Positions 5,102 to 64,000 of a stretch of DNA of 64,000 bases are shown here, piece by piece. The translations under genes and the position numbers were made by a program. The notes beneath the pieces are model-generated. The model did not search any database, was not told the DNA's origin, and saw only the letters and a list, made by a program, of their open reading frames with translations. Each line of letters begins with the position of its first letter. Position 1 is the stretch's first letter. Source of the stretch: Candidatus Jorgensenbacteria bacterium (GTDB lineage Bacteria; Patescibacteriota; Minisyncoccia; UBA6257; GWB1-50-10); contig JAZDFV010000002.1 in NCBI GenBank assembly GCA_043807585.1, forward strand, positions 25,581-89,580, written 5' to 3'.

Positions 5102-5141
5102 GTATTAAGAATCAAATGTCAAATATGTTGTAGGCATACTT

Positions 5142-5165
5142 TCTTATTCGCGCGAATAAGAAAGT
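5142..5165. promoter_or_regulatory. 24-bp perfect palindrome tttcttattcgcgcgaataagaaa (core ATTCGCGCGAAT)
   Basis: The palindrome is perfect, and the same core recurs at 19558 and 32978 upstream of genes. Confidence 0.5.
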
Positions 5166-5234
5166 ACGAGATTTTGAGAGATTGAGAAGCATAAAATAGG
5201 TAAATGCCGAACCACAAGTTTTTTCTTTGGATCG

Positions 5235-6281
5235 CTAAGCGTTCCTTTTATCCCGCTTAGCGGGAATGGCGGCAAATTCTTTCAAATATTTTTTGACCTT
5301 TCCAATAAATAAATCAATTAATAGTATAAAAATTATTAAAAGCAAAATTACCAATAGTTTATGCGTTACCCAAAAGGCATTGATATATATCCAAATATCA
5401 TAGAAAAATCTGTCAAACCAATTGTAATCAGGCGAGGGGAATCTTATTACTTCTTTATTAGCTTTATCGCCATTAACATCTACTTTGATATAGTGATAAA
5501 AATAATGGTCGGGGTCCGTTCCCATTAGTTCAGAACCAGCGCCGCCGGTAATAATATAATTTATTCCATTTTTTGTTTCATCGAAATAAGCATGAATATG
5601 GGAAGCAAAAACAGTATCAACTTTATACTTTTCCATTAAATTAATAAATTCTTGAGCATTCTGTTTGTCGGATAGGGAATGATTGGTGTTGGGACGGGGG
5701 TCAAAAGCTGGCACATGTAAAAAGACAAATTTATGTTGATAGTTTCTCTGCAATTGTTCCTCCAGCCATTTCATCTGCACCGCATCAATTCTTGTTTCAT
5801 TAGCATCGTCTAAGACAACGAATAAAGAATTGCCATAATCAAATGAATAATAAAATTTGCCAAAAATATCAAAATAGTTTTCTGCCCCGCCCTCTCGGAT
5901 ATCGTGATTGCCAACCGCGACCAAAAACGGTGTCTGCTCGTTTTTTATCATATTGTAAAAGATCCGGTATTTTGCTTTTTCACCGTCATACACCAAATCC
6001 CCAACATCAATGGCAAAAGTATAGTGGTTGTTGTCAATATCTTTCAGAATTTTACTAAATATTTTGAAGCTATTTTTATTATCGCCCATCACGGCAAAGC
6101 TGAAGTTGTCTGAAGGCGCGGAAGAATGAATTTTATCAATTTGTTTTTGATTATAATTGCCCGGGCCAACCGGCAAATAATCGTTTAGGCCAATGGTTAT
6201 TAGCAAAATAGCAATGACAACAACGGCAGCAATATGACGCTTTTTAGAGAAATATTTTTTAAAATTATCTTTTAATGACAT
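5235..6281 (-). CDS. membrane-anchored calcineurin-like metallophosphoesterase
   Basis: Phosphoesterase motifs GD, GDLVYDG, GNHD and ASHIH are present, with N- and C-terminal hydrophobic segments. The start was chosen at the internal Met (MSLKDN) because the longer ORF runs into the tRNA-like fragment. Confidence 0.7.
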   Translation of the reverse strand: MSLKDNFKKYFSKKRHIAAVVVIAILLITIGLNDYLPVGPGNYNQKQIDKIHSSAPSDNFSFAVMGDNKNSFKIFSKILKDIDNNHYTFAIDVGDLVYDGEKAKYRIFYNMIKNEQTPFLVAVGNHDIREGGAENYFDIFGKFYYSFDYGNSLFVVLDDANETRIDAVQMKWLEEQLQRNYQHKFVFLHVPAFDPRPNTNHSLSDKQNAQEFINLMEKYKVDTVFASHIHAYFDETKNGINYIITGGAGSELMGTDPDHYFYHYIKVDVNGDKANKEVIRFPSPDYNWFDRFFYDIWIYINAFWVTHKLLVILLLIIFILLIDLFIGKVKKYLKEFAAIPAKRDKRNA

Positions 6282-6317
6282 ATGTTTGTGGGACGCTGAG
6301 CGTCCCGATAACAACGC

Positions 6318-6354
6318 TAAGCGTTGTGCCCGGGGTGGGGGTCGAACCCACACG
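6318..6354 (-). other. degenerate tRNA 3'-half-like fragment (T-arm plus acceptor 3' strand)
   Basis: The minus-strand sequence GTGGG-TTCGACC-CCCAC-CCCGGGC-A looks like a tRNA 3' half. It shares gaacccacacgg with the fragment at 9046-9115. Confidence 0.5.
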
Positions 6355-6363
6355 GCCTTGCGA

Positions 6364-6630
6364 TCACAGGAGTTCTTCAAGCCGTTCGCGTTCCTCGTTG
6401 ATCAGTTCTTGCCATGTGAACGTGCTTTTCCCGCACAGAAATTCCCGCTTCATTTTTTGGTTGTTGTAGAAGAAATTTATCCACGCCCTGCCTTCGGTCG
6501 CGAGATTCACAAAATTTGCTAGCTCTTGGTCGTTCGCCCTGCTGAACAATCTCATCAATTCGCCTCGCTCGATCCCTCCAAGGGTCGAATTTCTTACAAT
6601 GGTTTCAAGTTTGTATAAGTTCGATTCCAT
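6364..6630 (-). CDS. hypothetical protein (88 aa), translationally coupled to the upstream large gene
   Basis: The ORF lies 5 nt after the stop of the 6636..9044 gene, and the region is AT-rich. Confidence 0.4.
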   Translation of the reverse strand: MESNLYKLETIVRNSTLGGIERGELMRLFSRANDQELANFVNLATEGRAWINFFYNNQKMKREFLCGKSTFTWQELINEERERLEELL

Positions 6631-6635
6631 GTTGG

Positions 6636-9044: not shown

Positions 9045-9045
9045 A

Positions 9046-9115
9046 TTTTGTGTGGTGCCCGAGGTGGGAATCCCAGCCTTCGCCTGACTACGGACGGGCA
9101 GGGAACCCACACGGT
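9046..9115 (-). other. tRNA-like 3'-end fragment abutting tRNA-Leu
   Basis: The minus-strand sequence ends ...GATTCCCACCTCGGGCACCA, which resembles the tRNA-Leu 3' end GATTCCCTCCTCGCCCA. It shares ccgtgtgggttc with the 6318-6354 fragment. Confidence 0.45.
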
Positions 9116-9197
9116 GTGGGCGAGGAGGGAATCGAACCCTCATGGGTTGCCCCACACGATTTTGAGTCGTGCGCGTATACCGTTCCGCCACTCGCCC
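9116..9197 (-). tRNA. tRNA-Leu (anticodon CAA)
   Basis: Manual fold: acceptor GGGCGAG/CTCGCCC, anticodon stem CACGA/TCGTG with loop CTCAAAA, a long variable arm and T-arm GAGGG-TTCGATT-CCCTC. Confidence 0.85.
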
Positions 9198-9343
9198 TCT
9201 CCTTTCGCGTTGATATTACCACAAAAATTCGGTACAGTAAATTAAACTATGGCTCGCGTAACCCTTCGACAGGCTCAGGGTTTCCAATCACAGAATCAAG
9301 TTTGTTCGGTATTTATGTGGAGAATCCAAATTTTATACAAAAC

Positions 9344-10201
9344 ATGGCAAGAGTAATCGCCATCTTCAACCAGAAGGGGGGCGTGGGGAAAACTACGACC
9401 TCCATGAACCTCTCCGCGTACCTCGCGATGCGCGGCAAGAAAACGCTCCTCATTGATTTTGATCCGCAGTTCAACGCGACCATCGGCCTCGGGGTCACGC
9501 ATGCGCCGGACGAGACCGTCTACCACGCGCTCCTCGCGGGGCAGGACGTGGAGCGGGTGGTGAAACCCACCTATCTCACCCACTTCCACTTGGCGCCCTC
9601 CTCTGCGGACCTCGCGGGAGCACTTATAGAACTCGTTTATCTCCCGGACCGCGAGCAGTATCTCCAACACTTTGTGGAGAAGGTACGCGACCGCTACGAT
9701 TTCATTTTTATCGATCTTGGGCCCAACCTAAACCTCCTCACGGTGAACGGTCTTGTGGCGGCCGACGAGGTCATCGCTCCCATCCAGTGCGAGTATTTCA
9801 GCTTGGAGGGATTGAGCCAGCTCCTCCAAACCATCACCCTCGTGAGGGAGAATCTGGAGCATCCGCTTAAAGTCACGGGAGCGCTCCTCACTATGTACGA
9901 CAAACGGGAACGCCACTCCCGTGAGATCGCGCGCGAGGTGCGGCGGCGTTTCCCGCACAAAGTATTTGATGTGGAAATCCCGCGCTCGGTGGCGCTCGCG
10001 GAGGCACCCCACTACAAGAAACCAATCATGCTCTATGCGCCGCTCTCGCCCGGCGCCTTGGCCTATGAGGCGCTTGCCGATGAGGTGTTGCGGGAGGCGT
10101 ACGGTGTTCCCACGGCGGGGAGCGTACCGCCCGCGCCACCCATGCCAGCGGATTATCCACAATATCCCCGACTTGACCCCGTTAGAGACAGCCCGCCCTA
10201 A
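9344..10201 (+). CDS. parA: ParA/Soj chromosome-partitioning ATPase
   Basis: The ORF carries a deviant Walker A (NQKGGVGKTTT) and ParA-family sequence. The start was taken at MARVIAIF. Confidence 0.85.
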   Translation: MARVIAIFNQKGGVGKTTTSMNLSAYLAMRGKKTLLIDFDPQFNATIGLGVTHAPDETVYHALLAGQDVERVVKPTYLTHFHLAPSSADLAGALIELVYLPDREQYLQHFVEKVRDRYDFIFIDLGPNLNLLTVNGLVAADEVIAPIQCEYFSLEGLSQLLQTITLVRENLEHPLKVTGALLTMYDKRERHSREIAREVRRRFPHKVFDVEIPRSVALAEAPHYKKPIMLYAPLSPGALAYEALADEVLREAYGVPTAGSVPPAPPMPADYPQYPRLDPVRDSPP

Positions 10202-10247
10202 GGGTCCTTTGGACCGCGCTTGCGCGCGGGCGCGGTCTCTAACGGGG
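10177..10247. repeat. CCGTTAG-TIR element copy A
   Basis: ccccgttagagac ... gtctctaacgggg is a perfect 13-bp TIR enclosing a GC-rich palindromic core. Confidence 0.8.
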
Positions 10248-11816: not shown

Positions 11817-13156
11817 CCTCTCGCGCATCATTCACCCTCACCTGCCCGCTTCGCCTTGCGAAGCAAGGCGGGCGGGTTGAGCCCCGCAAAGGTTTTACCT
11901 TGATAGAGCTCCTCGTGGTCATCGCCATTCTTGGCACCATCGCCGTGGCCGTGGTTTTAGTCATCAACCCCGCCGAGCTTATCAAGCAGGCGCGGGACTC
12001 GACCCGCCTCGAGGACCTTGGAACCATCAATCGTATCCTCGGTCTCTTCCAGGCCGACCAAGTGGATGCCTTCATGGGCACCTCCTCAATCGTATACGTC
12101 TCGGTCCCCGATACCTCCGCCACCTGCGTGAACCTCGGCCTCCCGACGCTTCCCAGTGGTTGGAGCTACGCCTGTGCCCCCACGAGCACCCTTCAGAAGG
12201 CGGACGGCACGGGCTGGATTCCTGTGAATCTCACCGCCTTCTCCGCTGGTTCCCCCCTCTCCAAGTTCCCCGTGGACCCCGTGAACGCTACCTCCACGGG
12301 CGAATACTATGCCTACGTCACTGGCTCATCTTGGGAACTGACGGCTTTTCTCAAGTCCGACAAATACAAAATGGGCGGTGGGAGTGATAAAGCCAGCAAA
12401 GACAGTGGCCAACACCCCGAGCTCTATGAACTTGGCTCCACTCTCAAACTCACCCCGGTCACAAGAGACCCTTCTTTGGTCGGGTACTGGAAGCTTGATG
12501 AAACGAGCGGTACCCTCTATGACACATCTGGCCACGGGAACAACGGCACGCAATCGGGGGGTGTAACCTACGGCGCGACCGGCAAGGTGGGGAACGCTTT
12601 GAGTTTTGATGGGGTGGATGATTATGTTTCTACGATCCTCTCGCCGCCATCAACAGTTCCTGTGTCGGTTCTTCTCTGGATTTACCCCACTGACAATACT
12701 GTGTCTCATTGTGTTGTTTCTCGTCCCCCCGCTGGTTGGTTTCCCCTCTATGGGGTTTGTCCATATTTATCAACAAATGAAGTATATAACTATACTAACG
12801 GATTATACGGTCTATATCTACAGACGACGGAATCCTACGGCGCTGCTATGCGTGTTACTTCAAACGTTTCACCGCCCAACAACACTTGGAGTCAGGTGGG
12901 ATTTACCTATGACGGGAGTAGTTTCACCTTGTTTTACAACGGTCAAGCTACTGGGAAAACGCTTTGGTGCAAGACAGGGGGATGCAATGAGAATCAAAAC
13001 TATTTGAGTATCTCAGGTTCTCAGACACATTCTTTGGGTAAAGCAAATGATGCCTGGAAGTCAAACCTTTTCCAAGGCAGTATCGACGACATCCGTATCT
13101 ATAATCGTGCCCTCTCCGCGGCTGAAATTAGTGCTATTTACAGTGCCACGCAATAG
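11813..13156 (+). CDS. type IV pilin-like protein with C-terminal LamG/ConA-like lectin domain (copy 1)
   Basis: It has a prepilin leader (RKGFTLIELLVVIAIL) and a C-terminal LamG-like region (FDGVDDYV...IDDIRIYNRALSAAEISAIY). ATGA overlaps the parB stop. Confidence 0.75.
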   Translation: MTSRASFTLTCPLRLAKQGGRVEPRKGFTLIELLVVIAILGTIAVAVVLVINPAELIKQARDSTRLEDLGTINRILGLFQADQVDAFMGTSSIVYVSVPDTSATCVNLGLPTLPSGWSYACAPTSTLQKADGTGWIPVNLTAFSAGSPLSKFPVDPVNATSTGEYYAYVTGSSWELTAFLKSDKYKMGGGSDKASKDSGQHPELYELGSTLKLTPVTRDPSLVGYWKLDETSGTLYDTSGHGNNGTQSGGVTYGATGKVGNALSFDGVDDYVSTILSPPSTVPVSVLLWIYPTDNTVSHCVVSRPPAGWFPLYGVCPYLSTNEVYNYTNGLYGLYLQTTESYGAAMRVTSNVSPPNNTWSQVGFTYDGSSFTLFYNGQATGKTLWCKTGGCNENQNYLSISGSQTHSLGKANDAWKSNLFQGSIDDIRIYNRALSAAEISAIYSATQ

Positions 13157-13178: not shown

Positions 13179-14384
13179 ATGACCTCTTGCGCATCATTCA
13201 CCCTCATAGAGCTCCTCGTCGTGATAGCGATCCTGGGGGTCTTGGCCACAGTCGTCATCCTCGTCATCAACCCCGCCGAGCTCATCAAGCAGGCGCGGGA
13301 CTCGACCCGCCTCGAGGACCTTGGAACCATCAATCGTATCCTCGGTCTCTTCCAGGCCGACCAAGTGGATGCCTTCATGGGCACCTCCTCAATCGTATAC
13401 GCCTCGGTCCCCGATACCTCCGCCACCTGCGTGAACCTCGGCCTCCCGACGCTTCCCAGTGGTTGGAGCTACGCCTGTGCCCCCACGAGCACCCTTCAGA
13501 AGGCGGACGGCACGGGCTGGATTCCTGTGAATCTTACCGCCTTCTCCGCTGGTTCCCCCCTCTCCAAGTTCCCCGTGGACCCCGTGAACACCACCTCCAC
13601 GAGCCAGTACTACACCTATGTAACGGGGGGGAGTTGGGAGCTGACCGCAGTCACCGAATCCTCAAAGTATGCTTCCAAATCCTCATCTGATGGCGGGGTA
13701 GACCCCGCCATGCTTGAGGTAGGGTCCGATCCTGGACTCGATCTCTCGCCCTTCGCCCATGGGATGGTGGGGTATTGGATGTTTGATGAGACGGGCACGA
13801 CCGCCAATGACAGCTCGGGTTATGCAAACACTGGCACCATGTATTCATCTTCAACTATCTCCGACTTACATACTTCTTCTAATTGTAAAGCTGGAAGTTG
13901 TGTGAGTCTTGATGGGACAGATGATTATGTGAGAATTCCAACGCTAGGGCCTTATGGTAGCTTCACATACCTTGCATGGATAAAATCAACAAATATTAAC
14001 AGTCCTTCTACACAACCTATTATTCATGGTCCCTCTGAAGGATGGAATAGTTTTAATATTAACTCCTCGAAATTAAGATATGGTAGTTATGGTGGTGTTG
14101 GGTGCGGCGGTGCAAACTCATTCAGCAATACCTCTCTTGCATCTAATACATCTTATTTTGTCGCAATGACCTATAACAGGAACGGACAATGGCAATCCTT
14201 TATTAATGGAGCTCTTGACAGTAGTACCAACCATAATTGTTCTCCAGGGTCAGGAGTATACGATATCGGCTCTGCAAGTAGCTACTCAGCACAAAAGTTT
14301 TATGGGATCATCGACGACGTCCGCATCTACAACAGGGCACTATCGGCATCAGAAATTAGCGCTATTTACAATGCAACGCAATAA
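13179..14384 (+). CDS. type IV pilin-like protein with divergent C-terminal LamG-like domain (copy 2)
   Basis: The N-terminal roughly 140 codons are near-identical to copy 1 at nucleotide level, and the C-terminal half is different. Confidence 0.75.
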   Translation: MTSCASFTLIELLVVIAILGVLATVVILVINPAELIKQARDSTRLEDLGTINRILGLFQADQVDAFMGTSSIVYASVPDTSATCVNLGLPTLPSGWSYACAPTSTLQKADGTGWIPVNLTAFSAGSPLSKFPVDPVNTTSTSQYYTYVTGGSWELTAVTESSKYASKSSSDGGVDPAMLEVGSDPGLDLSPFAHGMVGYWMFDETGTTANDSSGYANTGTMYSSSTISDLHTSSNCKAGSCVSLDGTDDYVRIPTLGPYGSFTYLAWIKSTNINSPSTQPIIHGPSEGWNSFNINSSKLRYGSYGGVGCGGANSFSNTSLASNTSYFVAMTYNRNGQWQSFINGALDSSTNHNCSPGSGVYDIGSASSYSAQKFYGIIDDVRIYNRALSASEISAIYNATQ

Positions 14385-15696: not shown

Positions 15697-15990
15697 ATGT
15701 TCAAACCACTCTCAAATAAAGTATTCATAGAGGCGGCGGAGGATGAGCAGCAGAAGACCAAGTCTGGTATCGTGCTCCCCGAGACCGCCGAGAAGGAGAA
15801 ATTTGTGAAAGGTTCCGTGGTCGCGGTGGGGCCGGGTAAGATGAACGACAAAGGTGAGCGCCTACCCATGGCGGTGAAGGTTGGCGACCGCGTCCTTTTC
15901 AAGAAACCCTGGTCGGGGGATGAGCTTGAGGCGGACGGGAAGAAGCTCTTGGTGGTGGATGAGGAGGATATACTCGCGATCGTAGAATGA
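15697..15990 (+). CDS. groES: co-chaperonin GroES
   Basis: The 97-aa ORF has a GroES sequence. Confidence 0.95.
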   Translation: MFKPLSNKVFIEAAEDEQQKTKSGIVLPETAEKEKFVKGSVVAVGPGKMNDKGERLPMAVKVGDRVLFKKPWSGDELEADGKKLLVVDEEDILAIVE

Positions 15991-16000
15991 TCGCGACAAG

Positions 16001-16127
16001 CACCAAATCCCAAGCACCAAATCCCAAATAAACTCCAATCGCTGAAATCTTGGTACAATAATTGAGACGGTTTTGAATTTGGAATTTGAGATTTATTTGT
16101 AATTTGGAATTTGTGGTTTGGAATTTC
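16001..16127. repeat. CCAAAT/ATTTGG word-palindrome element (copy upstream of groEL)
   Basis: caccaaatcccaagcaccaaatcccaaat ... ttggaatttgagatttatttgtaatttggaatttgtggtttggaatttc; the same family occurs at 50641 and 56311. Confidence 0.75.
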
Positions 16128-16135
16128 AACTAATT

Positions 16136-25440: not shown

Positions 25441-25518
25441 GTACACCCCGTTAGAGACAAGCCGCCCCTTGGCGGCTGTAGCCCCGCCTTTGGCATGGCG
25501 GTCTCTAACGGGGTACAC
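25441..25518. repeat. CCGTTAG-TIR element copy B
   Basis: gtacaccccgttagagac ... gtctctaacggggtacac is a perfect 18-bp TIR. Confidence 0.8.
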
Positions 25519-55878: not shown

Positions 55879-56310
55879 AAAATCACGTGCAAAAAAGTGA
55901 AGATGACCCAGGTCTGGAAAACAGACCGCGTGGTGCCGGTCACGGTACTCAAGGTGGAACCATCCGCAAGCGAAGGGATATTCGACGCGCTCAAAGAAGG
56001 GGCGCGTGTTCGTGTTTCCGGCGTGAGCAAAGGAAAGGGATTCCAAGGCGTGGTGAAGCGGCACGGGTTCCACGGCGGCCCCAAGTCCCACGGCCAGAAG
56101 GATCGTCTCCGCGCACCGGGCTCGATCGGTCCCACCGCCCCGCAGCGGGTGCTCCCCGGGCGGAAGATGGCAGGCCACATGGGGGCGCGGAAAGTCACGG
56201 TGCGGAATCTTGTGGTGGCGGAGGTGCACCCCGAGGAACGGTTGGTGTTCGTGCGTGGAGCGGTGCCGGGGGCGCGCGGTACTAAAGTAGAAATGAGAAC
56301 CGCAGAGTAG
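55876..56310 (+). CDS. rplC: 50S ribosomal protein L3 (short form)
   Basis: It is an L3 sequence shortened to 144 aa (KKVKMTQVW...[14 protein letters not shown]). Confidence 0.9.
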
Positions 56311-56462
56311 AAAATTGAAATTTGAGTCCAACCCATAAAAATTCCAAATGACAAATTCCAAATCTCAAATAATATCCAATAGCCTAAATTCCAAACTTTT
56401 CGGAGGTTGGTATTTGAGATTTGGTATTTATTTGTTATTTGGTGCTTGGAATTTGAGATTTC
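56311..56462. repeat. CCAAAT/ATTTGG word-palindrome element (copy upstream of rplD)
   Basis: aaattccaaatgacaaattccaaatctcaaat ... ggtatttgagatttggtatttatttgttatttggtgcttggaatttgagatttc. Confidence 0.75.
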
Positions 56463-56469
56463 TAAACTT

Positions 56470-57093
56470 ATGATCGTTGATGTTTTCAATCAAGAGAATA
56501 AAAAGGTGGGCACCGTGGAGCTCCCAAACACTGTGTTTGGCGTGAAGTGGAATCCGACGCTGGTTCAGCAAGTGACGGTCTCCCAGCTTGCGAACCGACG
56601 GAAGCCTATGGCGCACACGAAAACGCGCGGCGAGGTCCGCGGCGGCGGCAAGAAACCCTGGCGCCAGAAGCATACGGGGCGGGCCCGCCACGGTTCCACG
56701 CGTTCGCCGCTCTGGGCAGGCGGCGGCGTGACATTTGGTCCACGCAAGGACCGCATATTTGAAAAGCGTATCCCCATCGCTATGCGGCGCGCGGCGCTCC
56801 ACGCGGTGCTCTCCAAAAAACTTGCCGAAGATGAGGTGAGGGTCGTGGATACCTTCACGCTCACCGCGCCCAAGACCAAGCACGTGGCGGCGCTCGTGAG
56901 GTCCTTTTTCGGAAAACCTGCGAGCGTTCTTTTTGTGCCCGGGAAAGGCGAAGGAGATTTTTTCCGTGCGGGGCGTAACCTCCCCAAAACCAAAATTCTG
57001 CATGCTCGCTCCTTGAACGTGTATGATTGCCTTTCCCATCACTACCTGTTACTGGAACGGAACGCCATTGGCGAGCTCCGGGGCGCGAAGTAA
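56470..57093 (+). CDS. rplD: 50S ribosomal protein L4
   Basis: The L4 sequence is present. Confidence 0.9.
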   Translation: MIVDVFNQENKKVGTVELPNTVFGVKWNPTLVQQVTVSQLANRRKPMAHTKTRGEVRGGGKKPWRQKHTGRARHGSTRSPLWAGGGVTFGPRKDRIFEKRIPIAMRRAALHAVLSKKLAEDEVRVVDTFTLTAPKTKHVAALVRSFFGKPASVLFVPGKGEGDFFRAGRNLPKTKILHARSLNVYDCLSHHYLLLERNAIGELRGAK

Positions 57094-57124
57094 TTTTTCA
57101 TGATCATGAATCCCGTTAGAGACA

Positions 57125-57235
57125 ACTAAGATACCTACCTATGCAACTCCATATTTATAAACACAAAACATTAATTAGCAGCGAAAGGGCCGTGGCTATT
57201 ACGGTCGCCTATGGCGACCTGTCTCTAACGGGATG
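57125..57235. repeat. CCGTTAG-TIR element copy E whose right TIR contains the rplW start codon
   Basis: catgaatcccgttagagaca ... tgtctctaacgggATGaaa. Confidence 0.8.
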
Positions 57236-57604
57236 AAACTCTTCTCCCGAACCAAAAAAGAGGAAAAGAAGCCGGCGGTGACTGCGGCGCCCGCGGCACC
57301 GGCATTGCGCGGCGAGCACGCCCAGCCGCTCGAAGGGTTTTCCCCGGTCCAGCGCCCCTATGTGAGTGAGAAGACGCACGGGCTCGAGCGACACCGCGCG
57401 TACGCGTTCCTGATAAACCCTTCAGCGAACAAGGAGATGATTAAGCGGTATGTGGAGGAGCGTTATAAAGTGAACGTGGAACACGTGAACATCACCAGCA
57501 TTGCCTCAAAGGCAAAGCAGTTCCGGGGGCGCGTCCATCACGTCGGCAAGCGGAAAAAGGCCATCGTGCGGGTCCGCGAGGGACAGCGTATAGAAATTTC
57601 GTAA
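57233..57604 (+). CDS. rplW: 50S ribosomal protein L23 (N-terminally extended)
   Basis: An L23 core follows an Ala/Pro-rich N-terminal stretch of about 30 aa. Confidence 0.9.
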   Translation: MKLFSRTKKEEKKPAVTAAPAAPALRGEHAQPLEGFSPVQRPYVSEKTHGLERHRAYAFLINPSANKEMIKRYVEERYKVNVEHVNITSIASKAKQFRGRVHHVGKRKKAIVRVREGQRIEIS

Positions 57605-57650
57605 TGGCTTTGTCTAAAATTACAAGACAAAATCGCAGGAATTTTAGGTC
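57605..57650 (+). terminator. conserved post-stop hairpin gggctttgtctaaaatt-loop-aattttag (copy after rplW; others lie after rpsS, rplV, rplP and rpsN)
   Basis: The same 45-nt motif follows five r-protein stop codons (57605, 59031, 59821, 61299, 63949). Confidence 0.6.
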
Positions 57651-57687
57651 CTCGACTGAGCTCGGCCGAACGTCCCACAAAACCTTA

Positions 57688-57790
57688 CCCAGCACATAAA
57701 AGTATGAAAACATCAACCAATCTTAAAGTAATTACTTCTCGATTGAACGATTTGTACCAAGAAAGTCGCTTGGTTACTTTTATGTGCTGG
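57688..57790. repeat. CAGCACATAAA-TIR element R1 (about 103 nt, TIR cccagcacataaaagta / tacttttatgtgctggg)
   Basis: There are six copies in the r-protein operon spacers (57688, 59087, 60742, 61355, 62013 and 63592). R1, R2 and R4 are near-identical. Confidence 0.85.
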
Positions 57791-57852
57791 GTGCTCAAAT
57801 TTTCAGCAAAATTTAGCATCGCCTTCGGCTCGCAAATTTTGGTAAATTTGGC

Positions 57853-58674
57853 ATGAAACAGCACCGTCCATACACGCCTTCCCGTCGCCACATGACCGTG
57901 GTGGACTATTCGTCCATTACCGCGAAGGAACCCTTGAAGTCGCTCACGCGCCGCTTCCCCAAGCGGGGCGGGAGGAATTCCCAGGGGCGCATCACCATGC
58001 GCCACCAGGGCGGCGGCAATAAAGCGCTCTACCGCATGGTGGATTTCCGTATGAACAAAGCGGGTGTTCCAGCCAGGGTGGAAGCGATCGAATACGATCC
58101 ATACCGCACCGCTTTCATTGCGCGGCTCCTCTATCGGGACGGCGAGCGGCGCTACGCGCTTGCCTCCCATGGACTCGCGGTAGGCGATGTGGTGACAACG
58201 GGTGAAGAGGCGCCGGCAAAGCCGGGCAACCGAACGTCCCTTCAGCGCATTCCGGTAGGCACTTTTGTGTATAATATAGAGCTCTCGCCTGGCCGCGGCG
58301 GCCAGATCGCCCGTTCCGCCGGCTCAACGGTGCAGGTGCTCGCGAACGAGGACGGCTACACGCATCTTAAAATGCCGTCGGGGGAGGTTCGAAAGGTGCC
58401 ATGGAACGGCTGCGCCTCCATCGGTCAGGTATCGAATCCGGAACATAAATTCGTGACCATAGGGAAAGCGGGCCGCTCGCGGTGGCTCGGGGTGCGCCCG
58501 ACGGTGCGCGCAAAGGCGATGAACCCGCGTGACCACAAGTACGGCGGCGGCGAGGGGAGTACCCAGCGCGGCACCAAGCGTCCCAAGGACAAGTGGGGGA
58601 ATATCACCGGAGGCCGGAGGACCCGCAATAAGAAAAAGTGGTCGAGCGTGCTCATCATGAAGCGAAGATCTTAA
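57853..58674 (+). CDS. rplB: 50S ribosomal protein L2
   Basis: The L2 sequence is present. Confidence 0.95.
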   Translation: MKQHRPYTPSRRHMTVVDYSSITAKEPLKSLTRRFPKRGGRNSQGRITMRHQGGGNKALYRMVDFRMNKAGVPARVEAIEYDPYRTAFIARLLYRDGERRYALASHGLAVGDVVTTGEEAPAKPGNRTSLQRIPVGTFVYNIELSPGRGGQIARSAGSTVQVLANEDGYTHLKMPSGEVRKVPWNGCASIGQVSNPEHKFVTIGKAGRSRWLGVRPTVRAKAMNPRDHKYGGGEGSTQRGTKRPKDKWGNITGGRRTRNKKKWSSVLIMKRRS

Positions 58675-58700
58675 CCCCAACAAGCGATCCCTATAACTCT

Positions 58701-59030
58701 ATGTCCAGAAGCATTCGCAAAGGTCCGTGGGTTGACCCCAAGCTCTTGAAGAAGGTGAGCCGGCTCAAGCTTGGCGATCGCACGGTCATCAAAACGTGGT
58801 CGCGCGATTCTGAGATTGCGCCCGAGATGGTAGGGTTTGTCTTCGACATCCATAACGGCAGGCAGTTCATCGAGGTGACGATTTCGGAAGATATGGTGGG
58901 ACATCGTTTGGGTGAGTTCTCGCTGACCCGGAAGTTCGTGAAGCATGGAGGGAAAATGCAGCGTGACATCGAGAAAAGTGCCGAAGCGACCGCCGCCACC
59001 CCCAAGCCGCCCGCGCCTGCCGGTAAGTAA
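58701..59030 (+). CDS. rpsS: 30S ribosomal protein S19 (C-terminally extended)
   Basis: The S19 sequence is followed by an extended C-terminal tail. Confidence 0.9.
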   Translation: MSRSIRKGPWVDPKLLKKVSRLKLGDRTVIKTWSRDSEIAPEMVGFVFDIHNGRQFIEVTISEDMVGHRLGEFSLTRKFVKHGGKMQRDIEKSAEATAATPKPPAPAGK

Positions 59031-59086
59031 GGGCTTTGTCTAAAATTACAAGACGAAATCGCAGGAATTTTAGCAACAAAACCTTA

Positions 59087-59190
59087 CCCAGCACATAAAA
59101 GTATGAAAACATCAACCAATCTTAAAGTAATTACTTCTCGATTGAACGATTTGTACCAAGAAAGTCGCTTGGTTACTTTTATGTGCCGGG
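59087..59190. repeat. CAGCACATAAA-TIR element R2
   Basis: It is near-identical to R1. Its right flank, gtggacattcggctgagctcagtcgaagccctcg, is shared with R6 and, in inverse orientation, with the R1 left flank. Confidence 0.85.
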
Positions 59191-59262
59191 TGGACATTCG
59201 GCTGAGCTCAGTCGAAGCCCTCGGTTTTATAATCGCTCGTAAAACTCGCGAATAAAAACGGC

Positions 59263-59820
59263 ATGCCCGAAACCACCACCGCAAAACTCAAATATCTTCA
59301 CATCACGCCGCGCAAAACGCGTGCGGTGGCGGACCTCATCCGCGGGCTCTCCGTGAATGAGGCGGAGGCGCAACTTTCCCTCACCGCACGGCGCGCGGGA
59401 GTACCCCTCCTGAAGCTCCTACGTTCGGCGGTAGCGAACGCAAAGCAAGTGTTGAAGAAAGAGCCAGCCGAACTCTTCGTAAAGGAGATACGGGTGGATT
59501 TGGGTCCCCGGTTCAAACGGTGGAACCCCCGAGCCCGCGGAGCGGTGAACCTTGTGGAGAAAAAGATGAGCCATGTGACAGTGGTCCTCGGCGTCATGGA
59601 GCATCCGCGCCCGGCGCGCTTCGTGTTCCCCGAAAAACCGAAAAAGGAGAAAAAGGAGAAAAAGGAGAAACGCGGGCACAAGCACGAACATGAAGCCAAA
59701 GAGAAACCCGCTGGTGAGGCGCCCCGCGGGGAGGAGAAAAAGAAAGCGAAGGAGGAACCGTGGCGCGGCGGCGGGCGCAAAGGGTTTCTCGGGCGCTTGT
59801 TCCGGCGCAAGGCCGTCTAG
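59263..59820 (+). CDS. rplV: 50S ribosomal protein L22 with K/E-rich C-terminal extension
   Basis: An L22 core is followed by an extension containing KKEKKEKKEK. Confidence 0.9.
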   Translation: MPETTTAKLKYLHITPRKTRAVADLIRGLSVNEAEAQLSLTARRAGVPLLKLLRSAVANAKQVLKKEPAELFVKEIRVDLGPRFKRWNPRARGAVNLVEKKMSHVTVVLGVMEHPRPARFVFPEKPKKEKKEKKEKRGHKHEHEAKEKPAGEAPRGEEKKKAKEEPWRGGGRKGFLGRLFRRKAV

Positions 59821-59871
59821 GTTTGTCTGAAATTTGAAGATGAAATCGCACAAATTTCAGCAACAAACCGT

Positions 59872-59980
59872 GACCCCGTTAGATAGCGGTAATAATATGA
59901 AATTTCAATACAAAAATGGAGTATTAGGGATAACAATCGTCGAACCACTCCGAGCGGGTCCGTCCGCATCTAACGGGGTG
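59872..59980. repeat. CCGTTAG-TIR element copy G (between rplV and rpsC)
   Basis: gaccccgttagatagcggtaa ... ccgcatctaacggggtg. Confidence 0.8.
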
Positions 59981-60039
59981 CTCAAATTTATGGCGGAATA
60001 TGACTTCGCCTTCGGCTCGTAAATTTCGATAAATTTGGC

Positions 60040-60720
60040 ATGGCACAAAAAATAAATCCAACAACTTTCCGATTAGGCATTACCATCCCGTGGCGGAGCC
60101 GCTGGTTCTTCAAGCGGAGCCTCCGGTTTTTCCTTGAGGAGGATTACCTTATCCGCGAACTGATCCGCGAGAAGATTCTCGAGGCCGGTATCGCGGGGAT
60201 CGAGATTGAGCGGACCGCCGACGCCATCCGCGTGAGCATCCGCGCGAGCCGCCCCGGCCTCATCATCGGGCGCGGCGGCAAGGGCATTGACGAAATTCGC
60301 AAACTCCTGGAAAAAGAGATCCGCGCGCTCCGACAAAAAAACCGTATGACGCGCCCCTTCGCGCTCCACTTGAACGTGGAGGAGCTGAAGCGCACCGAGA
60401 TATCCGCCCCGGTGGTAGCCCAGCAGATCGCTTTCGATCTTGAGAAACGGCTCCCATACCGCCGCGTGATGAAGCGGCATCTCGAGCTCATGATGCAGAA
60501 CCGCGAGGTGAAGGGGGCAAAGATTAAGTTGAGCGGACGGCTGAATGGAGCCGAGATTTCGAGGACTGACTGGCTTGCCAAAGGCAAAATGCCTCTCCAA
60601 ACCCTCCGCGCGAACGTGGATTACGGCGAGGCGACCGCGTTCAACTCCTACGGGACCGTGGGTGTAAAGACGTGGATCTATAAGGGAGACATATTCTCAG
60701 AAAAACCCCACGAGCGGTAG
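60040..60720 (+). CDS. rpsC: 30S ribosomal protein S3
   Basis: The S3 sequence is present. Confidence 0.95.
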   Translation: MAQKINPTTFRLGITIPWRSRWFFKRSLRFFLEEDYLIRELIREKILEAGIAGIEIERTADAIRVSIRASRPGLIIGRGGKGIDEIRKLLEKEIRALRQKNRMTRPFALHLNVEELKRTEISAPVVAQQIAFDLEKRLPYRRVMKRHLELMMQNREVKGAKIKLSGRLNGAEISRTDWLAKGKMPLQTLRANVDYGEATAFNSYGTVGVKTWIYKGDIFSEKPHER

Positions 60721-60741
60721 TGAGCGTCGGTTTTTCGAGAA

Positions 60742-60845
60742 CCCAGCACATAAAAGTATGAAAATATCAACTGATTTTAAATTAATTATTTCTGTGTCAA
60801 ATGGCTTGTACCAAGAAGGTCGCTTGGTTACTTTTACGTGCTGGG
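60742..60845. repeat. CAGCACATAAA-TIR element R3
   Basis: It is a family copy with a diverged interior. Confidence 0.8.
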
Positions 60846-60887
60846 TGCGCAATTTTATGATTTCGCTGCCGCTCAAATAAAATTGGC

Positions 60888-61298
60888 ATGCTCCAACCCA
60901 AGAAACAAAGATTTCGCAAGCAGCAGAAGGGGCGCTCCCGGAGCCGCCTCGTGGAGACCCGCGGCACGACGCTCGCATTCGGCCACTTTGGTTTGCAGGC
61001 CCTTGAGGCCGCGTGGGTGACGGCCCAACAGATCGAGGCGGCGCGGAAGGCCATCAGCCACGGCATGGAACGCGAAGGGAAAATGTGGATTCGCGTGTTC
61101 CCCGATAAACCGGTAACCAAGCTGCCGCCCGAGGTGACGCTGGGGGGAGGCAAGGGCGAGGTGGACCATTACGTATTTCCCGTGAAGCCGGGTCGCATCC
61201 TCTTTGAGGTTGATGGGGTGCCGGAGAGTGTCGCATTTCCCGCGCTCCGCAACGCCGGTCATAAGCTGCCGGTGAAGACGAAGATTGTAACAAAGTAA
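60888..61298 (+). CDS. rplP: 50S ribosomal protein L16
   Basis: The L16 sequence is present. Confidence 0.95.
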   Translation: MLQPKKQRFRKQQKGRSRSRLVETRGTTLAFGHFGLQALEAAWVTAQQIEAARKAISHGMEREGKMWIRVFPDKPVTKLPPEVTLGGGKGEVDHYVFPVKPGRILFEVDGVPESVAFPALRNAGHKLPVKTKIVTK

Positions 61299-61354
61299 GG
61301 GCTTGGTATGGATTTTCAAGCCGCAGGCGCAGAAAATACATGAACCAAACCTTA

Positions 61355-61458
61355 CCCAGCACATAAAAGTATGAAAACATCAACCAATCTTAAAGCAATT
61401 ACTTCTCGATTGAACGATTTGTACCAAGGAGGTCGCTTGGTTACTTCTATGTGCTGGG
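61355..61458. repeat. CAGCACATAAA-TIR element R4
   Basis: It is near-identical to R1 and R2. Confidence 0.85.
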
Positions 61459-61519
61459 TGCTCGGTTTTATAGCTAAATTTCCGTCGCGTGCTCGCTTGG
61501 AAATTTAGATAAAAACAGC

Positions 61520-61735
61520 ATGAAAAAGAAAGAACTTCACACCTATCGTGAGAAGCCCATGCCGGAAATCGAGAAGGAGATCCGGGAAGCTCGGGCGCGC
61601 CTTGAAGCGCTCAAGTTTGACTTGGTGAGGGGCAAAGTGAAGAATATACGCGAAGTGCGGGCGGTGAAGAAGACCATCGCGCAGCTCCTCACGCTTCGGG
61701 AGGCCAGGGTGCGCGAGGGAACGCACGTTTCATAA
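61520..61735 (+). CDS. rpmC: 50S ribosomal protein L29
   Basis: The L29 sequence is present. Confidence 0.9.
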   Translation: MKKKELHTYREKPMPEIEKEIREARARLEALKFDLVRGKVKNIREVRAVKKTIAQLLTLREARVREGTHVS

Positions 61736-61739
61736 AACC

Positions 61740-61991
61740 ATGCGAAAGCTTAAAGGCACCATCGTGTCCGATAAAATGACCCGCACCCGGGTGGTGGAGA
61801 TTGCGCGAACGAAGAAGCACCCCCGCTATGAGCGCTACGTTACAGTGACGAAGCGCGTGAAGGCGGACGATCCAAAGAACGAATACAAAACGGGAGAGAT
61901 GGTGGTGATCGAGGAAACCCGGCCGCTCTCCAAGGAAAAGCGGTGGAGAATCGTTGGCTTGGTCCAAAAATCGGAGCCGAAGGCGAAATGA
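61740..61991 (+). CDS. rpsQ: 30S ribosomal protein S17
   Basis: The S17 sequence is present. Confidence 0.9.
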   Translation: MRKLKGTIVSDKMTRTRVVEIARTKKHPRYERYVTVTKRVKADDPKNEYKTGEMVVIEETRPLSKEKRWRIVGLVQKSEPKAK

Positions 61992-62012
61992 TTTTTGGCT
62001 ACCAAACAACAA

Positions 62013-62116
62013 CCCTGCACATAAATTTATGAACACGGTTTTCAACCAAAAAATGAATAAGATATCGGTCAATCGCTCTGGTTATCGAAAGCGTACGGTT
62101 AAATTTATGTGCGGGG
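62013..62116. repeat. CAGCACATAAA-TIR element R5 (diverged: ccctgcacataaatttatg ... aaatttatgtgcgggg)
   Basis: The TIRs are related and the interior differs. Confidence 0.7.
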
Positions 62117-62186
62117 TGCTCATTGTGGTAGCTGAATATTCTTCGCTACGCAGTGAGCTTCGCTTGAATATTCAGACCACAATGGC

Positions 62187-62552
62187 ATGATCCAAGAACG
62201 TTCCATCATTAAAGTGGCCGACAACAGCGGAGCGAAAACCGTCCGTTGTTTTCGCATCCCTGGGGGAACCCGGAGGCGGTACGCGCGGATTGGCGACATT
62301 CTCGTGGCCTCGGTGCAGGTCGCCGAACCCCGGAAACAGGTAAAGAAGAAGGACATCATCCGCGCCCTCGTGGTGCGTACGCGAAACCCCCTCAGGCGTC
62401 CCGACGGCTCCGTGGTGCGGTTCGATGAAAATGCCGTGGTGCTTGTGGATAAGAAAGAACCTCGCGGGACCCGCGTATTCGGTCCAATCCCGCGGGAAAT
62501 AAAAGAAAAGGGATATGACGCCATCGCGTCGTTGGCGGAGGAACTCGTGTAA
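62187..62552 (+). CDS. rplN: 50S ribosomal protein L14
   Basis: The L14 sequence is present. Confidence 0.95.
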   Translation: MIQERSIIKVADNSGAKTVRCFRIPGGTRRRYARIGDILVASVQVAEPRKQVKKKDIIRALVVRTRNPLRRPDGSVVRFDENAVVLVDKKEPRGTRVFGPIPREIKEKGYDAIASLAEELV

Positions 62553-62559
62553 CGCGATG

Positions 62560-62700
62560 CAAAACTATAAATTCATGCGAATCTACAAATATGATACGAA
62601 TATATCCGCATAAATCCGTTTCAATCCGCATAAATCCGTGTTTAGTAAATCAGCGTAAATCAGCGTCCAATAAATCAGCATCAATCCGCGTGTTTAGTAA
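62560..62700. repeat. direct-repeat word array upstream of rplX (ccgcataaatccg x2, aaatcagcgt x2, gtgtttagtaaa x2)
   Basis: Direct repeats of several words are present rather than an inverted arrangement. Confidence 0.6.
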
Positions 62701-62706
62701 AACAAT

Positions 62707-63012
62707 ATGAAAATAAAAAAAGGAGATACCGTAAAAGTGCAAAAAGGAAAAGACCGCGGGAAGAGCGGGAAGGTGGTGCATGTTAACCCGGTCACCGGTC
62801 GTGTCATGGTGGAGGGGTTGAATCTCGTGAAGAAGCACGTGCGCCCGCGCCGGCAGGGCGAGAAAGGCGAGGTAGTGCAGGTGCCGCGTTCCGTCCCCGT
62901 AGCGAACGTGGCGCTCGTCTGCCCGCACTGCAGCGCCGCGACCCGCGTCGGTTTTCGCGCCGAGGAGACCCGAAAGGTGCGGTACTGCAAAAAGTGCCGC
63001 GCGGCGATCTGA
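62707..63012 (+). CDS. rplX: 50S ribosomal protein L24 with C-terminal C4 zinc-ribbon-like extension
   Basis: An L24 KOW region is followed by CPHCS...CKKC. Confidence 0.9.
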   Translation: MKIKKGDTVKVQKGKDRGKSGKVVHVNPVTGRVMVEGLNLVKKHVRPRRQGEKGEVVQVPRSVPVANVALVCPHCSAATRVGFRAEETRKVRYCKKCRAAI

Positions 63013-63014
63013 AT

Positions 63015-63548
63015 ATGGCACACCGAACGGCAGGCAAACCAATAGAGAAAGTGGTGGTGAATGTGGGGGTTGGGAAGCTCCGTAGCCAACCGCAGTTTGA
63101 CGAGAAAGTGCTCCCCGAGGTGGCGCAGGAACTCGCGCTCCTCACGGGCCAAAAGCCGGCGCCACGGCAGGCCGCAAAAGCGGTGGCGAGTTTCAAGACC
63201 CGTGAGGGTGATATCGTAGGGTTGCAGGTGACGCTCCGCGGGAAGCGCGCACAGGCGTTCCTCGAAAAACTGGTGCGCCTCATACTCCCGCGCGTGAAGG
63301 ATTTCCGCGGCGTGGATATGAAGAATGTGGACGAAGGGGGCAATCTGAACCTTGGGTTCCGCGAGCAATACGTGTTCCCGGAGATCAACATGGAGAAATC
63401 ACGCACTCACTTTGGCTTGCAGGTGACGGTGGTCCCCGTGGTGCGGGATCGCGTCCGCGCGCTCGAACTCTATCGGTCGCTAGGGGTTCCGCTGAAGGGC
63501 TTGGTTGAAAAATACAAGCCGCAGGCGCCGCGCCCGACTTCGCATTGA
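63015..63548 (+). CDS. rplE: 50S ribosomal protein L5
   Basis: The L5 sequence is present, and its start overlaps the rplX stop. Confidence 0.9.
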   Translation: MAHRTAGKPIEKVVVNVGVGKLRSQPQFDEKVLPEVAQELALLTGQKPAPRQAAKAVASFKTREGDIVGLQVTLRGKRAQAFLEKLVRLILPRVKDFRGVDMKNVDEGGNLNLGFREQYVFPEINMEKSRTHFGLQVTVVPVVRDRVRALELYRSLGVPLKGLVEKYKPQAPRPTSH

Positions 63549-63591
63549 CGAAGTCAAGGCGGGCGGGTAGGATTTTTCAACACCAAACCTT

Positions 63592-63676
63592 CACCGAGCA
63601 CATAAAGCATTATGTTATGAATATGAAGAACAAACACCACGAGGTTGCGCAACCAAGTTCCTTTATGTGCTCGGTG
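63592..63676. repeat. CAGCACATAAA-TIR element R6 (diverged)
   Basis: caccgagcacataaagcat ... ctttatgtgctcggtg is followed by the shared flank gacattcggctgagctcagtcgaagccctcg. Confidence 0.7.
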
Positions 63677-63762
63677 GACATTCGGCTGAGCTCAGTCGAA
63701 GCCCTCGATTCCGTAGATAAATTTTCATCGTCCGCTAACTCGAAAATTTATACATAATCGGC

Positions 63763-63948
63763 ATGGCCAAAACATCCGTCATTGCACGATCCAAAAAGCA
63801 GCCGAAGTTTTCCACCCGCGTGGTTCGGCGGTGCTTCCGCTGCGGGCGGAAGCGCGGCTATATGCGCGATTTCAATCTCTGTCGCATTTGCTTCCGCGAG
63901 TTCGCGAGCCGCGGTGAAATTCCCGGGGTGAAAAAAGCGTCATGGTAA
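63763..63948 (+). CDS. rpsN: 30S ribosomal protein S14 (type Z, zinc-binding)
   Basis: It is a 61-aa ORF with the type-Z cysteine pattern CFRCGRKRG...CRICFRE. Confidence 0.9.
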
Positions 63949-64000
63949 GGGCTTTGTTCGAAATTGCGAGCCACAGGCGAAGAAATTTCGATGACAAAAC

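Follow-up and report, generated by a model that had tools for sequence, protein, structure and literature searches.

In a member of the Candidatus Jorgensenbacteria, most of the long spacers between genes of the S10/spc ribosomal-protein operon are occupied by copies of a composite palindromic repeat that runs from the stop codon of one gene to the start codon of the next. The stretch analysed, referred to below as the window, comprises 64,000 nucleotides of contig JAZDFV010000002.1 (assembly GCA_043807585.1, positions 25,581 to 89,580, forward strand). The spacers are probably copies of palindromic, non-autonomous insertion elements that form a new family in Patescibacteria and resemble MITEs (miniature inverted-repeat transposable elements). 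The traits of MITEs seen here are terminal inverted repeats, small size, lack of a transposase gene, many copies, and presence/absence polymorphism at orthologous sites. No description of the element was found in the literature on repeats, MITEs, REPs, and structured RNAs of the Candidate Phyla Radiation (CPR), Patescibacteria, and Parcubacteria. An earlier interpretation made from the letters of the window without database searches, termed here the sequence-only reading, had treated the conserved parts of the spacers as independent punctuation signals. They are instead parts of one composite palindromic repeat.

The host lineage belongs to the CPR (Patescibacteria). RpsC of the window is 90% identical to RpsC of L001, a metagenome-assembled 'Candidatus Jorgensenbacteria' genome, and 65-71% identical to that of about a dozen further Paceibacteria-type genomes; exact-protein look-ups of RpsC, RplN, and RpsN matched no record. 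Pfam searches identified S10, L3, L4, L23, L2, S19, and L22 in this order after EF-G and EF-Tu, and the later genes from S3 to S14 were assigned from their translations and from tblastn searches against relatives, which confirms the universal S10/spc order that had been called canonical. The claim that every gene is followed by a spacer of 100-300 bp built from conserved modules holds for 10 of the 13 junctions between rplD and rpsN as far as length is concerned (139-248 bp, with a GC content of 0.36-0.45 versus 0.55-0.63 in the genes). "Every" is overstated, since three junctions are tight, with 26 bp at rplB-rpsS, 4 bp at rpmC-rpsQ, and 2 bp at rplX-rplE. Conserved modules make up most of the long spacers, but the rplN-rplX spacer contains none of those of the composite and no inverted repeat, and both its position and its sequence are kept in L001. 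Shine-Dalgarno (SD) sequences are absent from the gene starts of the operon, as had been noted, but this is a trait of the lineage and not of the element, because, of 913 starts of ribosomal-protein genes examined in 80 related loci (L001-L080), only 51 have an SD core (GGAG, GAGG, or AGGA at -18 to -4 of the start). These lineages start translation without SD.

The composite consists of three hairpins in a fixed order. The stop codon of the upstream gene is followed by the (A)GGGCUU-hairpin HP1, the linker AAACCUU(U), the central hairpin HP2 closed by ACCC...GGGU, and the GCUCAAU-hairpin HP3, which ends with UUGGC directly at the next AUG. The same order of parts is found at the same junctions in relatives, despite different GC contents and RpsC identities of 44-70%. 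A metagenome scan with the pattern AAACCTT(N)ACCC-N85-115-GGGTGCTSAA matched at least 120 contigs, and the copy statistics given here refer to 127 non-redundant copies among the matches listed. The 51 complete copies measure 189-302 nt (median 230). The distance from the stop codon of a long upstream open reading frame (ORF) to GGGC is 0 or 1 nt in 60 of 63 copies, and in 58 of 65 copies the downstream ORF begins directly at GGC-ATG (both among the matches listed). HP1 is mostly 48-50 nt long and begins 0-1 nt 3' of the TAA stop codon. HP2 spans about 105-129 nt and has a near-perfect stem of about 15 bp, whose sequence is variable and about 95% Watson-Crick paired, around an A-rich interior in which no conserved motif was found. 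HP3 occurs in two size classes of 35-41 and 54-66 nt. Elements contain only short ORFs. In L051, two miniature composites (7668-7835 and 9037-9110) have an HP2 of just 38 or 17 nt while HP1 is kept, which shows that hardly anything of the central hairpin need remain.

Both in the window and in relatives, the covariance model of HP1 matches the minus strand at HP3 sites, and that of HP3 does so at HP1 sites (e.g., with 40.3 and 36 bits). HP1 and HP3 thus form an inverted repeat, which makes the whole composite a palindrome of about 220 nt around HP2. Its outermost 10 nt or so (GGGCTT... and ...TTGGCA) are not mutual inverted copies.

Covariance models locate at least nine composite copies within the final 14 kb of the window and none in the other 50 kb; here, the composite is restricted to the str, S10, and spc operons (Table 1). 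The hairpin that had been described after five stop codons is HP1. It is present at all five, and the HP1 model (R1) adds position 49954 and the 3' end of rpsQ (61951-62016), while a direct-repeat match adds the 3' end of rplE (63494-63580). An element of about 103 nt with terminal inverted repeats, reported in six copies of which three were nearly identical, corresponds to HP2 with CAGCACATAAA arms. Six inverted pairs of these arms were found (13 matches versus 0.59 expected by chance); identity is 94-98% among three of the copies and 83-85% for a fourth, and the remaining two have diverged further. The second type of element, with CCGTTAG inverted repeats, occurs at four sites (50001, 55758, 57112, and 59875), and a short form of it is found at 10178 and 25447. 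The conserved motif in front of start codons is also real and represents HP3, which the respective model (R2) places at seven sites. Minus-strand 'MMFSYFYVLGKV' ORFs, which had been suspected to be spurious, exist as by-products of the repeat. The rpsL-rpsG copy lies outside the region covered by the sequence-only reading.

Table 1. Composite elements, solo hairpins, and associated features in the window (coordinates in the window).
Feature	Coordinates	Strand	Parts	Support or remarks
Composite rpsL-rpsG	49954..50176	+	HP1; CCGTTAG-type HP2 (50001-50103); HP3; ATG of rpsG	R1 49954-50003; R2 50099-50176, 77.4 bits; CCGTTAG arms
Solo CCGTTAG hairpin directly upstream of rplC	55758..55875	.	...ggcATGAAT[CCCGTTAG..CTAACGGG]ATGAAAATC	ATGAA duplication
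Solo CCGTTAG hairpin filling the rplD-rplW spacer	57112..57232	.		ATGAA duplication; site empty in L001
Composite rplW-rplB	57602..57855	+	TAA; HP1 57605-57647; extra palindromic module in minus orientation 57652-57670; linker AAACCTTACCC 57680-57690; HP2 with CAGCACATAAA arms 57688-57791; HP3 57792-57852; ATG	
Composite rpsS-rplV	59027..59265	+	HP1 59027-59091; HP2 arms 59089, 59178; palindromic module TTCGGCTGAGCTCAGTCGA 59197-59215; divergent 3' hairpin; ATG	R1 74.6 bits
Composite rplV-rpsC	59816..60042	+	HP1; CCGTTAG-type HP2 59875-59977; HP3; ATG	R1 53.9 bits; R2 68.8 bits
Element rpsC-rplP without HP1	60721..60890	+	TTTTCGAGAA; HP2 arms 60744, 60833; short-form HP3 60840-60890; ATG	
Composite rplP-rpmC	61295..61522	+	HP1; HP2 arms 61357, 61446; HP3; ATG	R1 73.9 bits; R2 69.1 bits
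Composite rpsQ-rplN	61951..62189	+	HP1 61951-62016; HP2 arms 62015, 62104; HP3 62111-62189; ATG	R1 56.8 bits; R2 77.2 bits
Degenerate composite rplE-rpsN	63494..63765	+	HP1 with inserted GC hairpin inside rplE 3' end 63494-63580; short HP2, arms 63596, 63662; palindromic module 63681-63699; HP3-like hairpin 63696-63765 before ATG	R2 42.1 bits
HP1 of a further element after rpsN, cut by the window end	63946..64000	+	HP1	R1 63950-64000, 49.7 bits
Small ORFs (MKTSTNLKVITSRLNDLYQE...) from the HP2 loop	57704-57856, 59103-59255, 60758-60880, 61371-61508	+		
rplN-rplX spacer of another class, not composite	62553..62706	+		tandem AAATCCGC/AAATCAGC words

The copies of the window are mosaics. The three copies whose HP2 is 94-98% identical have HP3 hairpins that are only 54-67% and HP1 hairpins that are 64-96% identical, and HP3 of the rplW-rplB copy is closest (79%) to HP3 of the rplV-rpsC copy, whose HP2 is a different one. 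A palindromic module of 19 nt is present in both orientations, and hairpins are nested inside HP3 in L097 and L179. These identities show that the modules have separate histories within one genome. In the rpsQ-rplN copy, HP1 overlaps the final 13 codons of rpsQ. The C-terminal tail of RpsQ (GLVQKSEPKAK) is encoded by HP1 (61951-61991), and the proteins of relatives end at ...RWIIVEKI; likewise, HP1 encodes the C-terminal tail KGLVEKYKPQAPRPTSH of RplE (63494-63548), and relatives end at ...GVPLKKS. Both tails result from the loss of the native stop codon, due to which the ORF reads into the repeat.

Comparison of the S10/spc loci of 80 species shows that most junctions measure 1-20 bp and that most relatives with an RpsC identity of about 70% have compact operons. 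Covariance models detect the element in 10 of these 80 Patescibacteria species (L001, L002, L006, L007, L016, L017, L018, L023, L025, and L051), which are scattered over 44-90% RpsC identity and in which it always lies in the sense orientation. Several copies per contig are found in L007, L025, L081, and L101. Even in comparison with L001, occupancy differs at most junctions: the rplB-rpsS junction is empty in the window (26 bp) and filled in L001 (211 bp), and the rpsS-rplV junction is filled in the window (232 bp) and measures 9 bp in L001, while the termini of the flanking proteins are unchanged. Contigs with about 96% nucleotide identity can differ as well, as L125 is filled where L091 has a deletion of about 185 nt that leaves a 3' remnant of HP3. 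At about 88% nucleotide identity, L122 is filled and L193 is empty at the rplN-rplX junction. These alignments show that the element comes and goes between close relatives. A conserved function of the spacers, for which comparison with relatives had been suggested as the test, is not borne out, as most relatives are compact, L001 is filled at different junctions, and contigs with a nucleotide identity of 89-96% are polymorphic. More than half of the flanking genes encode ribosomal proteins (among the matches listed; assignments were made by eye from N-terminal sequences), namely L2, S19, L22, S3, L14/L24, S14/S8, L6, L18/S5, L15, S4, L21, L33, L34, L36, and S13. Other flanks encode EF-G, SecE/NusG, RpoA, HPF, RecR, SSB, a tRNA synthetase, MurB, response regulators, and type IV pilus proteins. 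A small number of copies are located upstream of a unit's first gene.

Mobility is indicated by the CCGTTAG hairpin, which also occurs outside the composite. More than 20 such solo hairpins are flanked by duplications of 4-6 bp (ATGAA, TTGAC, GTTTAC, GTACAC, or GTCAAC). At the rplD-rplW junction, the filled site of the window reads ...gatcATGAAT[CCCGTTAG...CTAACGGG]ATGAAACTC, with an insert of 118 nt, and the corresponding empty site of L001 reads ...gattATGAAACTC. Recurrent targets are ATGAA, which consists of a start codon and two further bases, and TTGAC, which is similar to a -35 promoter box. Owing to the duplication of the start codon or the TTGAC box, a functional copy remains right after the insert. 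The filled and empty sites show that this hairpin inserts on its own, and it behaves as a classical MITE. Within the window, solo CCCGTTAG...CTAACGGG hairpins with duplications are found at 10178-10246, 25447-25512, 55758-55875, and 57112-57232, and others are present in L006, L007, L017, L073, L092, L108, L154, L157, L190, L198, and L199. A mini-hairpin of 29 nt, CCCCACACATAACCCGGTTATGTGTGGGG, lies between two TTGAC copies at 55596-55640, beside half a CCGTTAG arm and upstream of a promoter-like TTGACT-17-TAGGAT site (55636-55664). CCGTTAG hairpins with perfect stems of 9-13 bp are also found in 12 stretches of viral contigs from IMG/VR (L201-L212), one of which (L210) has an ATGAA duplication; these contigs are either CPR phages carrying the hairpin or misclassified CPR DNA. 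The pattern of the composite had no match in viral contigs, and 13 viral-contig matches to the 16-mer linker were rejected as unrelated sequences.

Covariance modelling, which had been proposed for the modules, shows them to be structured and non-random. For 64 HP1 modules, RNAalifold predicts 22 pairs, 18 of them with compensatory changes, and 96.2% of the HP1 cells are paired, compared with 75% in shuffles and no more than 55% with slid partners. The long form of HP3 (n=45) has 22 pairs, 17 of them compensatory, and 94.3% of its cells are paired versus 79.8% in shuffles. In the basal helix of HP1, UAAAGG, consisting of the stop codon and the following bases, pairs with CCUUUA of the linker. 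TAA serves as the stop codon in 58 of 60 element copies versus 84% at compact ribosomal-protein junctions. The consensus fold of HP3 has a basal GUGC/GCAU helix that takes in the A and U of the AUG, but single-sequence minimum free energy (MFE) folds leave the AUG unpaired in 44 of 51 copies, usually just outside the helix. The three helices abut without linkers, so that the predicted fold takes in the transcript from the stop codon onwards and releases it where the next gene starts. In the loop of long-form HP3, the sequence of the 3' arm recurs as a third copy, termed X', whose changes follow those of the 5' arm, with a complementarity of 8.7 nt to its own 5' arm versus 6.2 nt in cross-pairings; two mutually exclusive folds of HP3 are therefore possible, one of which would leave the AUG region single-stranded. 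The sense strand folds more stably than the antisense strand in 24 of 51 copies (p=0.42), and the two are thus equal. This is expected of a DNA palindrome, and the folding-energy test therefore cannot separate a role of the RNA from a palindrome.

Searches of Rfam 15 at gathering thresholds gave a tRNA at 9117-9197 as the sole match in the whole window, and at E<=5 over 54800-64000 only spurious miRNA and IRES matches far below threshold. A pseudoknot between the AACCUUUA linker and AAAGGU in the HP2 loop was rejected, because AAAGGU is present in only 15 of 127 copies (among the matches listed) and the interior of HP2 is unconserved. A tRNA-like or T-loop structure of HP2 was also discarded, as only a few copies fit and no tRNA model matched.

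According to the insertion-element reading, copies would persist almost solely in the sense orientation, exactly from stop to start codon, and between co-transcribed, mostly highly expressed genes, presumably because the transcript folds compactly at such sites. With the stop codon paired to the CCUU(U)A linker and the AUG placed at the foot of HP3, the predicted fold would leave termination, re-initiation, and operon expression tolerably intact in an SD-free lineage. Insertions elsewhere or in antisense orientation would be purged by selection, so that the element would survive only where its transcript is harmless and would turn over quickly. Effects on RNase processing, mRNA stability, or translation would be secondary, as with Correia, ERIC, and REP elements, and would not be the reason for the spacers.

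Several observations do not sit easily with this interpretation. No target-site duplication was found for the whole composite or for HP2 inside it, and at filled junctions none of the nucleotides of the relative's spacer remain; simple insertion into a pre-existing spacer is therefore not an explanation. An empty scaffold of HP1 and HP3 without HP2 was not found either. The window ORFs that were tested yielded no transposase domain, and a search of 1.7 Mb of related sequence for an autonomous partner, which gives a weak negative, detected no coding element bounded by matching CCCGTTAG inverted repeats. Four single-stranded joints, GGGC, AAACCUUU, GCUC, and UUGGC, are kept across genomes with only 44% RpsC identity. 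Strand calls of the flanking genes give about 108 sense versus 10 antisense copies, some of the latter being false because of short-gene artefacts. The registers of stop codon and linker co-vary, as the linker reads CCTTTA in 38 of the 40 copies that have TAA-A-GGGC and CCTTA in all 20 that have TAA-GGGC. Finally, G.U exceeds A.C mismatches in HP1 (29:9) and in HP2 (40:22); the ratio in HP3 is 9:12. This lean towards the sense strand hints at selection on the transcript, short of proof. Joints, sense bias, register covariation, and G.U excess fit selection on the transcript, be it for function or for tolerance. Transposition of the IS200/IS605 type, with TTAC on the left and TCAA on the right, is not supported, since the flanks vary (TCAC, TAAC, TTAT), the HP1/HP3 scaffold is never found empty, and no Y1 transposase was found.

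Selection for function is the core of the explanation that the composite is a domesticated cis-acting RNA device, whose three-hairpin fold would be selected for its action on the polycistronic transcript, either as RNase III-type processing sites that cut the operon, as in the early region of phage T7, or through an HP3 switch that hides or exposes the AUG and would thereby tune how each gene is translated. The strong compensatory covariation in HP1 and HP3, the paired stop codon with its co-varying register, the A and U of the AUG within the consensus basal helix, the alternative folds offered by X', the near-universal sense orientation, and the G.U excess in HP1 would all agree with such a device, as would flanking genes that mostly encode ribosomal proteins, along with EF-G, NusG, RpoA, and pilus proteins. 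In addition, the rpsC-rplP variant is kept at this one junction in the window, L002, L007, and L125. Palindromic DNA elements, however, also keep their arms complementary, and covariation alone is therefore no proof of RNA function. The element is absent in most relatives and is gained or lost between close ones without a compensating feature, the interior of HP2 lacks a conserved motif, the sense and antisense folds are equally stable, and the AUG is mostly unpaired in single-sequence folds. Such a device thus appears unlikely, although helices of about 20 bp are plausible RNase substrates by analogy with Correia and ERIC elements. A more specific version, which we regard as doubtful, is a self-contained 'stop-start cassette' RNA recruited by SD-free Patescibacteria, in which the stop codon and the AUG would lie side by side at an open three-way junction and HP3 would switch to hide or free the AUG, setting re-initiation, RNase cleavage, or both gene by gene in operons with the highest expression.

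Two further explanations place the signal in a reading frame or in the DNA. An ATG in the HP2 loop could open a short upstream ORF of 30-50 codons that runs through GGG-GUG-CUC-AAU and stops 0-15 nt before the AUG of the gene, so that translating ribosomes would melt HP3 and re-initiate on the ribosomal-protein gene, a coupling like that proposed for mycobacterial MIRUs. This frame is open in all four CAGCACATAAA copies of the window despite different HP3 sequences, and the small ORFs end 0-12 nt before the next ATG, with the ORF at 57704-57856 overlapping the rplB start as ATGA. Thirty-eight of 79 elements have the ORF in the preferred frame versus 13 and 10 in the other frames, with a stop at most 25 nt from the gene ATG in 29 elements (versus 7 and 6) and a median of 20 open codons upstream (versus 11 and 10). 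Such an ORF starts with ATG in only about half of the copies, however, and in 16 of the 51 complete ones; the frames differ in conserved sequence, which biases the positions of stop codons, the peptide is conserved only where the nucleotides are, and some copies have an early stop (L016, and copy 1 of L025 at its first ATG). A coding role is accordingly judged very improbable. Signals at the level of DNA or transcription, that is, a terminator and a promoter for each gene or attC-type recombination sites of integrons that define cassettes, are more than improbable and come close to being dismissed. Their appeal is that hairpins bracket every gene, that three HP2 copies contain a weak terminator-like hairpin with a U-rich tail, and that the CCGTTAG arms GTTAGAT...ATCTAAC are superficially similar to the attC core (GTTRRRY) and inverse core (RYYYAAC). 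Internal terminators, which the sequence-only reading had considered, are contradicted by HP1, an AT-rich hairpin that is followed by AAACCUU and not by a U-tract, and by a promoter and terminator scan that flagged neither HP1 nor HP3 and found such sites not to be concentrated in the elements. In attC sites, the inverse core RYYYAAC is located 5' and the core GTTRRRY 3', the bottom strand is folded with extrahelical bases, and an integrase is encoded nearby. The core-like sites of the CCGTTAG arms have the reverse order, other HP2 families lack them, no integrase is encoded in the window, and the universal S10/spc order would be unexpected for an array built from cassettes.

As an insertion element, the composite can be compared with several known repeat families. 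Like Correia elements of Neisseria and ERIC/IRU of enterobacteria, it is small (100-250 bp in those families), non-coding, and multi-copy, it has terminal inverted repeats that fold into long transcript hairpins, and it occupies intergenic sites in operons that are polymorphic between strains. RNase III cleaves Correia transcripts within their inverted repeats, and an RNase E site becomes accessible where ERIC has inserted (PMC10969869). In contrast to both, the composite lacks a duplication of TA or other sequence, has three hairpins with a swappable centre, spans exactly from stop to start codon with the stop codon paired in the fold, and is almost always sense; its consensus bears no evident resemblance to theirs, as far as can be said without direct sequence comparison. 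Whereas those families are limited to a genus, the composite is spread across 44-90% RpsC identity. MIRUs share the position between operon genes, the uniform orientation, the presence in polycistronic mRNA, and small ORFs that overlap neighbouring genes (PMC3184786), and they also have filled and empty sites between species (PMC3184786, citing Supply et al. 1997). They are GC-rich units of 40-100 bp, often in tandem arrays (variable-number repeats), with tetranucleotide direct repeats, in contrast to a single copy of about 220 nt per junction with three hairpins and a small ORF in roughly every second copy. BOX elements of Streptococcus pneumoniae (boxA-boxB-boxC) and the BIMEs of E. coli, which are mosaics of REPs, are likewise modular mosaic hairpin repeats (PMC3049150; PMC3184786) with conserved ends and a variable middle in transcribed intergenic regions. 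The modules of BOX and REP have other sequences and are not fixed to stop and start codons, and REPs are GC-rich hairpins (imperfect palindromes) of 35-40 nt that have a conserved 5' tetranucleotide and are linked to RAYT transposases, unlike the AT-rich hairpins of 45-125 nt in the composite; no Y1 transposase (RAYT) was found in the window. Chunjie, a MITE of Geobacter uraniireducens, has clear inverted and direct repeats and occurs in a single species, according to a summary of its description (PMC10969869). Neisseria REP2 and inverted-repeat sequences of Borrelia also lie directly upstream of genes, contain stem-loops, and bring their own ATG (PMC3184786). They carry a promoter and a ribosome-binding site and are not joined to the upstream stop codon, unlike the composite, which has neither a promoter-like nor an SD-like signal.

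A second class of AT-rich spacers, to which the rplN-rplX spacer belongs, is unrelated to the composite and consists of short tandem words and their inverses (AAATTCCAAAT/ATTTGGAATTT; CTACGAAT/ATTCGTAG; AAATCCGC). In the window, such spacers are found at 56311-56470, 2584-2760, 15990-16130, 50646-50775, and 62553-62706, and most of them are long imperfect palindromes. In L001, they stand in place of the composite at several S10/spc junctions.

The rpsJ-rplC spacer (54860-55875) measures about 1 kb and contains several GC-rich hairpins and a 161-codon ORF with 36% GC and no Pfam match (55061-55546). The same junction has 544 bp in L001 and 90-1500 bp in other relatives. RplC (55876-56310) has only 144 aa, similar to about 142 aa in L007; typical bacterial L3 proteins are longer, and roughly 60 mid-protein residues are missing here. 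An AT-rich island on the minus strand (5000-9200, GC 0.36-0.44), which encodes a metallophosphoesterase-like ORF (5235-6380) and an 851-codon ORF without a clear domain (6636-9191), abuts the only tRNA of the window (9117-9197) and may be foreign DNA inserted beside the tRNA gene. A direct repeat of 300 nt with 92% identity (11894-12193 and 13197-13496) lies inside two adjacent long ORFs and probably represents a tandem gene duplication. The ORF at 47049-47843, which immediately precedes the str operon, contains a 'homing endonuclease associated repeat' (PF18780).

CPR bacteria are viewed as having streamlined, repeat-poor genomes. Here, one repeat family adds about 2 kb to the operon that is the most conserved in biology. 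In practical terms, the element gives rise to false ORF calls, extends ribosomal proteins by tails that it encodes itself (rpsQ and rplE in the window), and can break or mis-join metagenome assemblies at the marker genes of CPR phylogeny. Its placement from stop to start codon, the paired stop codon, and a hairpin core that duplicates start codons or TTGAC boxes illustrate how a selfish element may live in essential operons without breaking them. If the element is processed or read by ribosomes, it would offer a way to study the linked translation of neighbouring genes in SD-free bacteria, and if a 'stop-start cassette' exists, it would represent a mobile element turned into operon punctuation.

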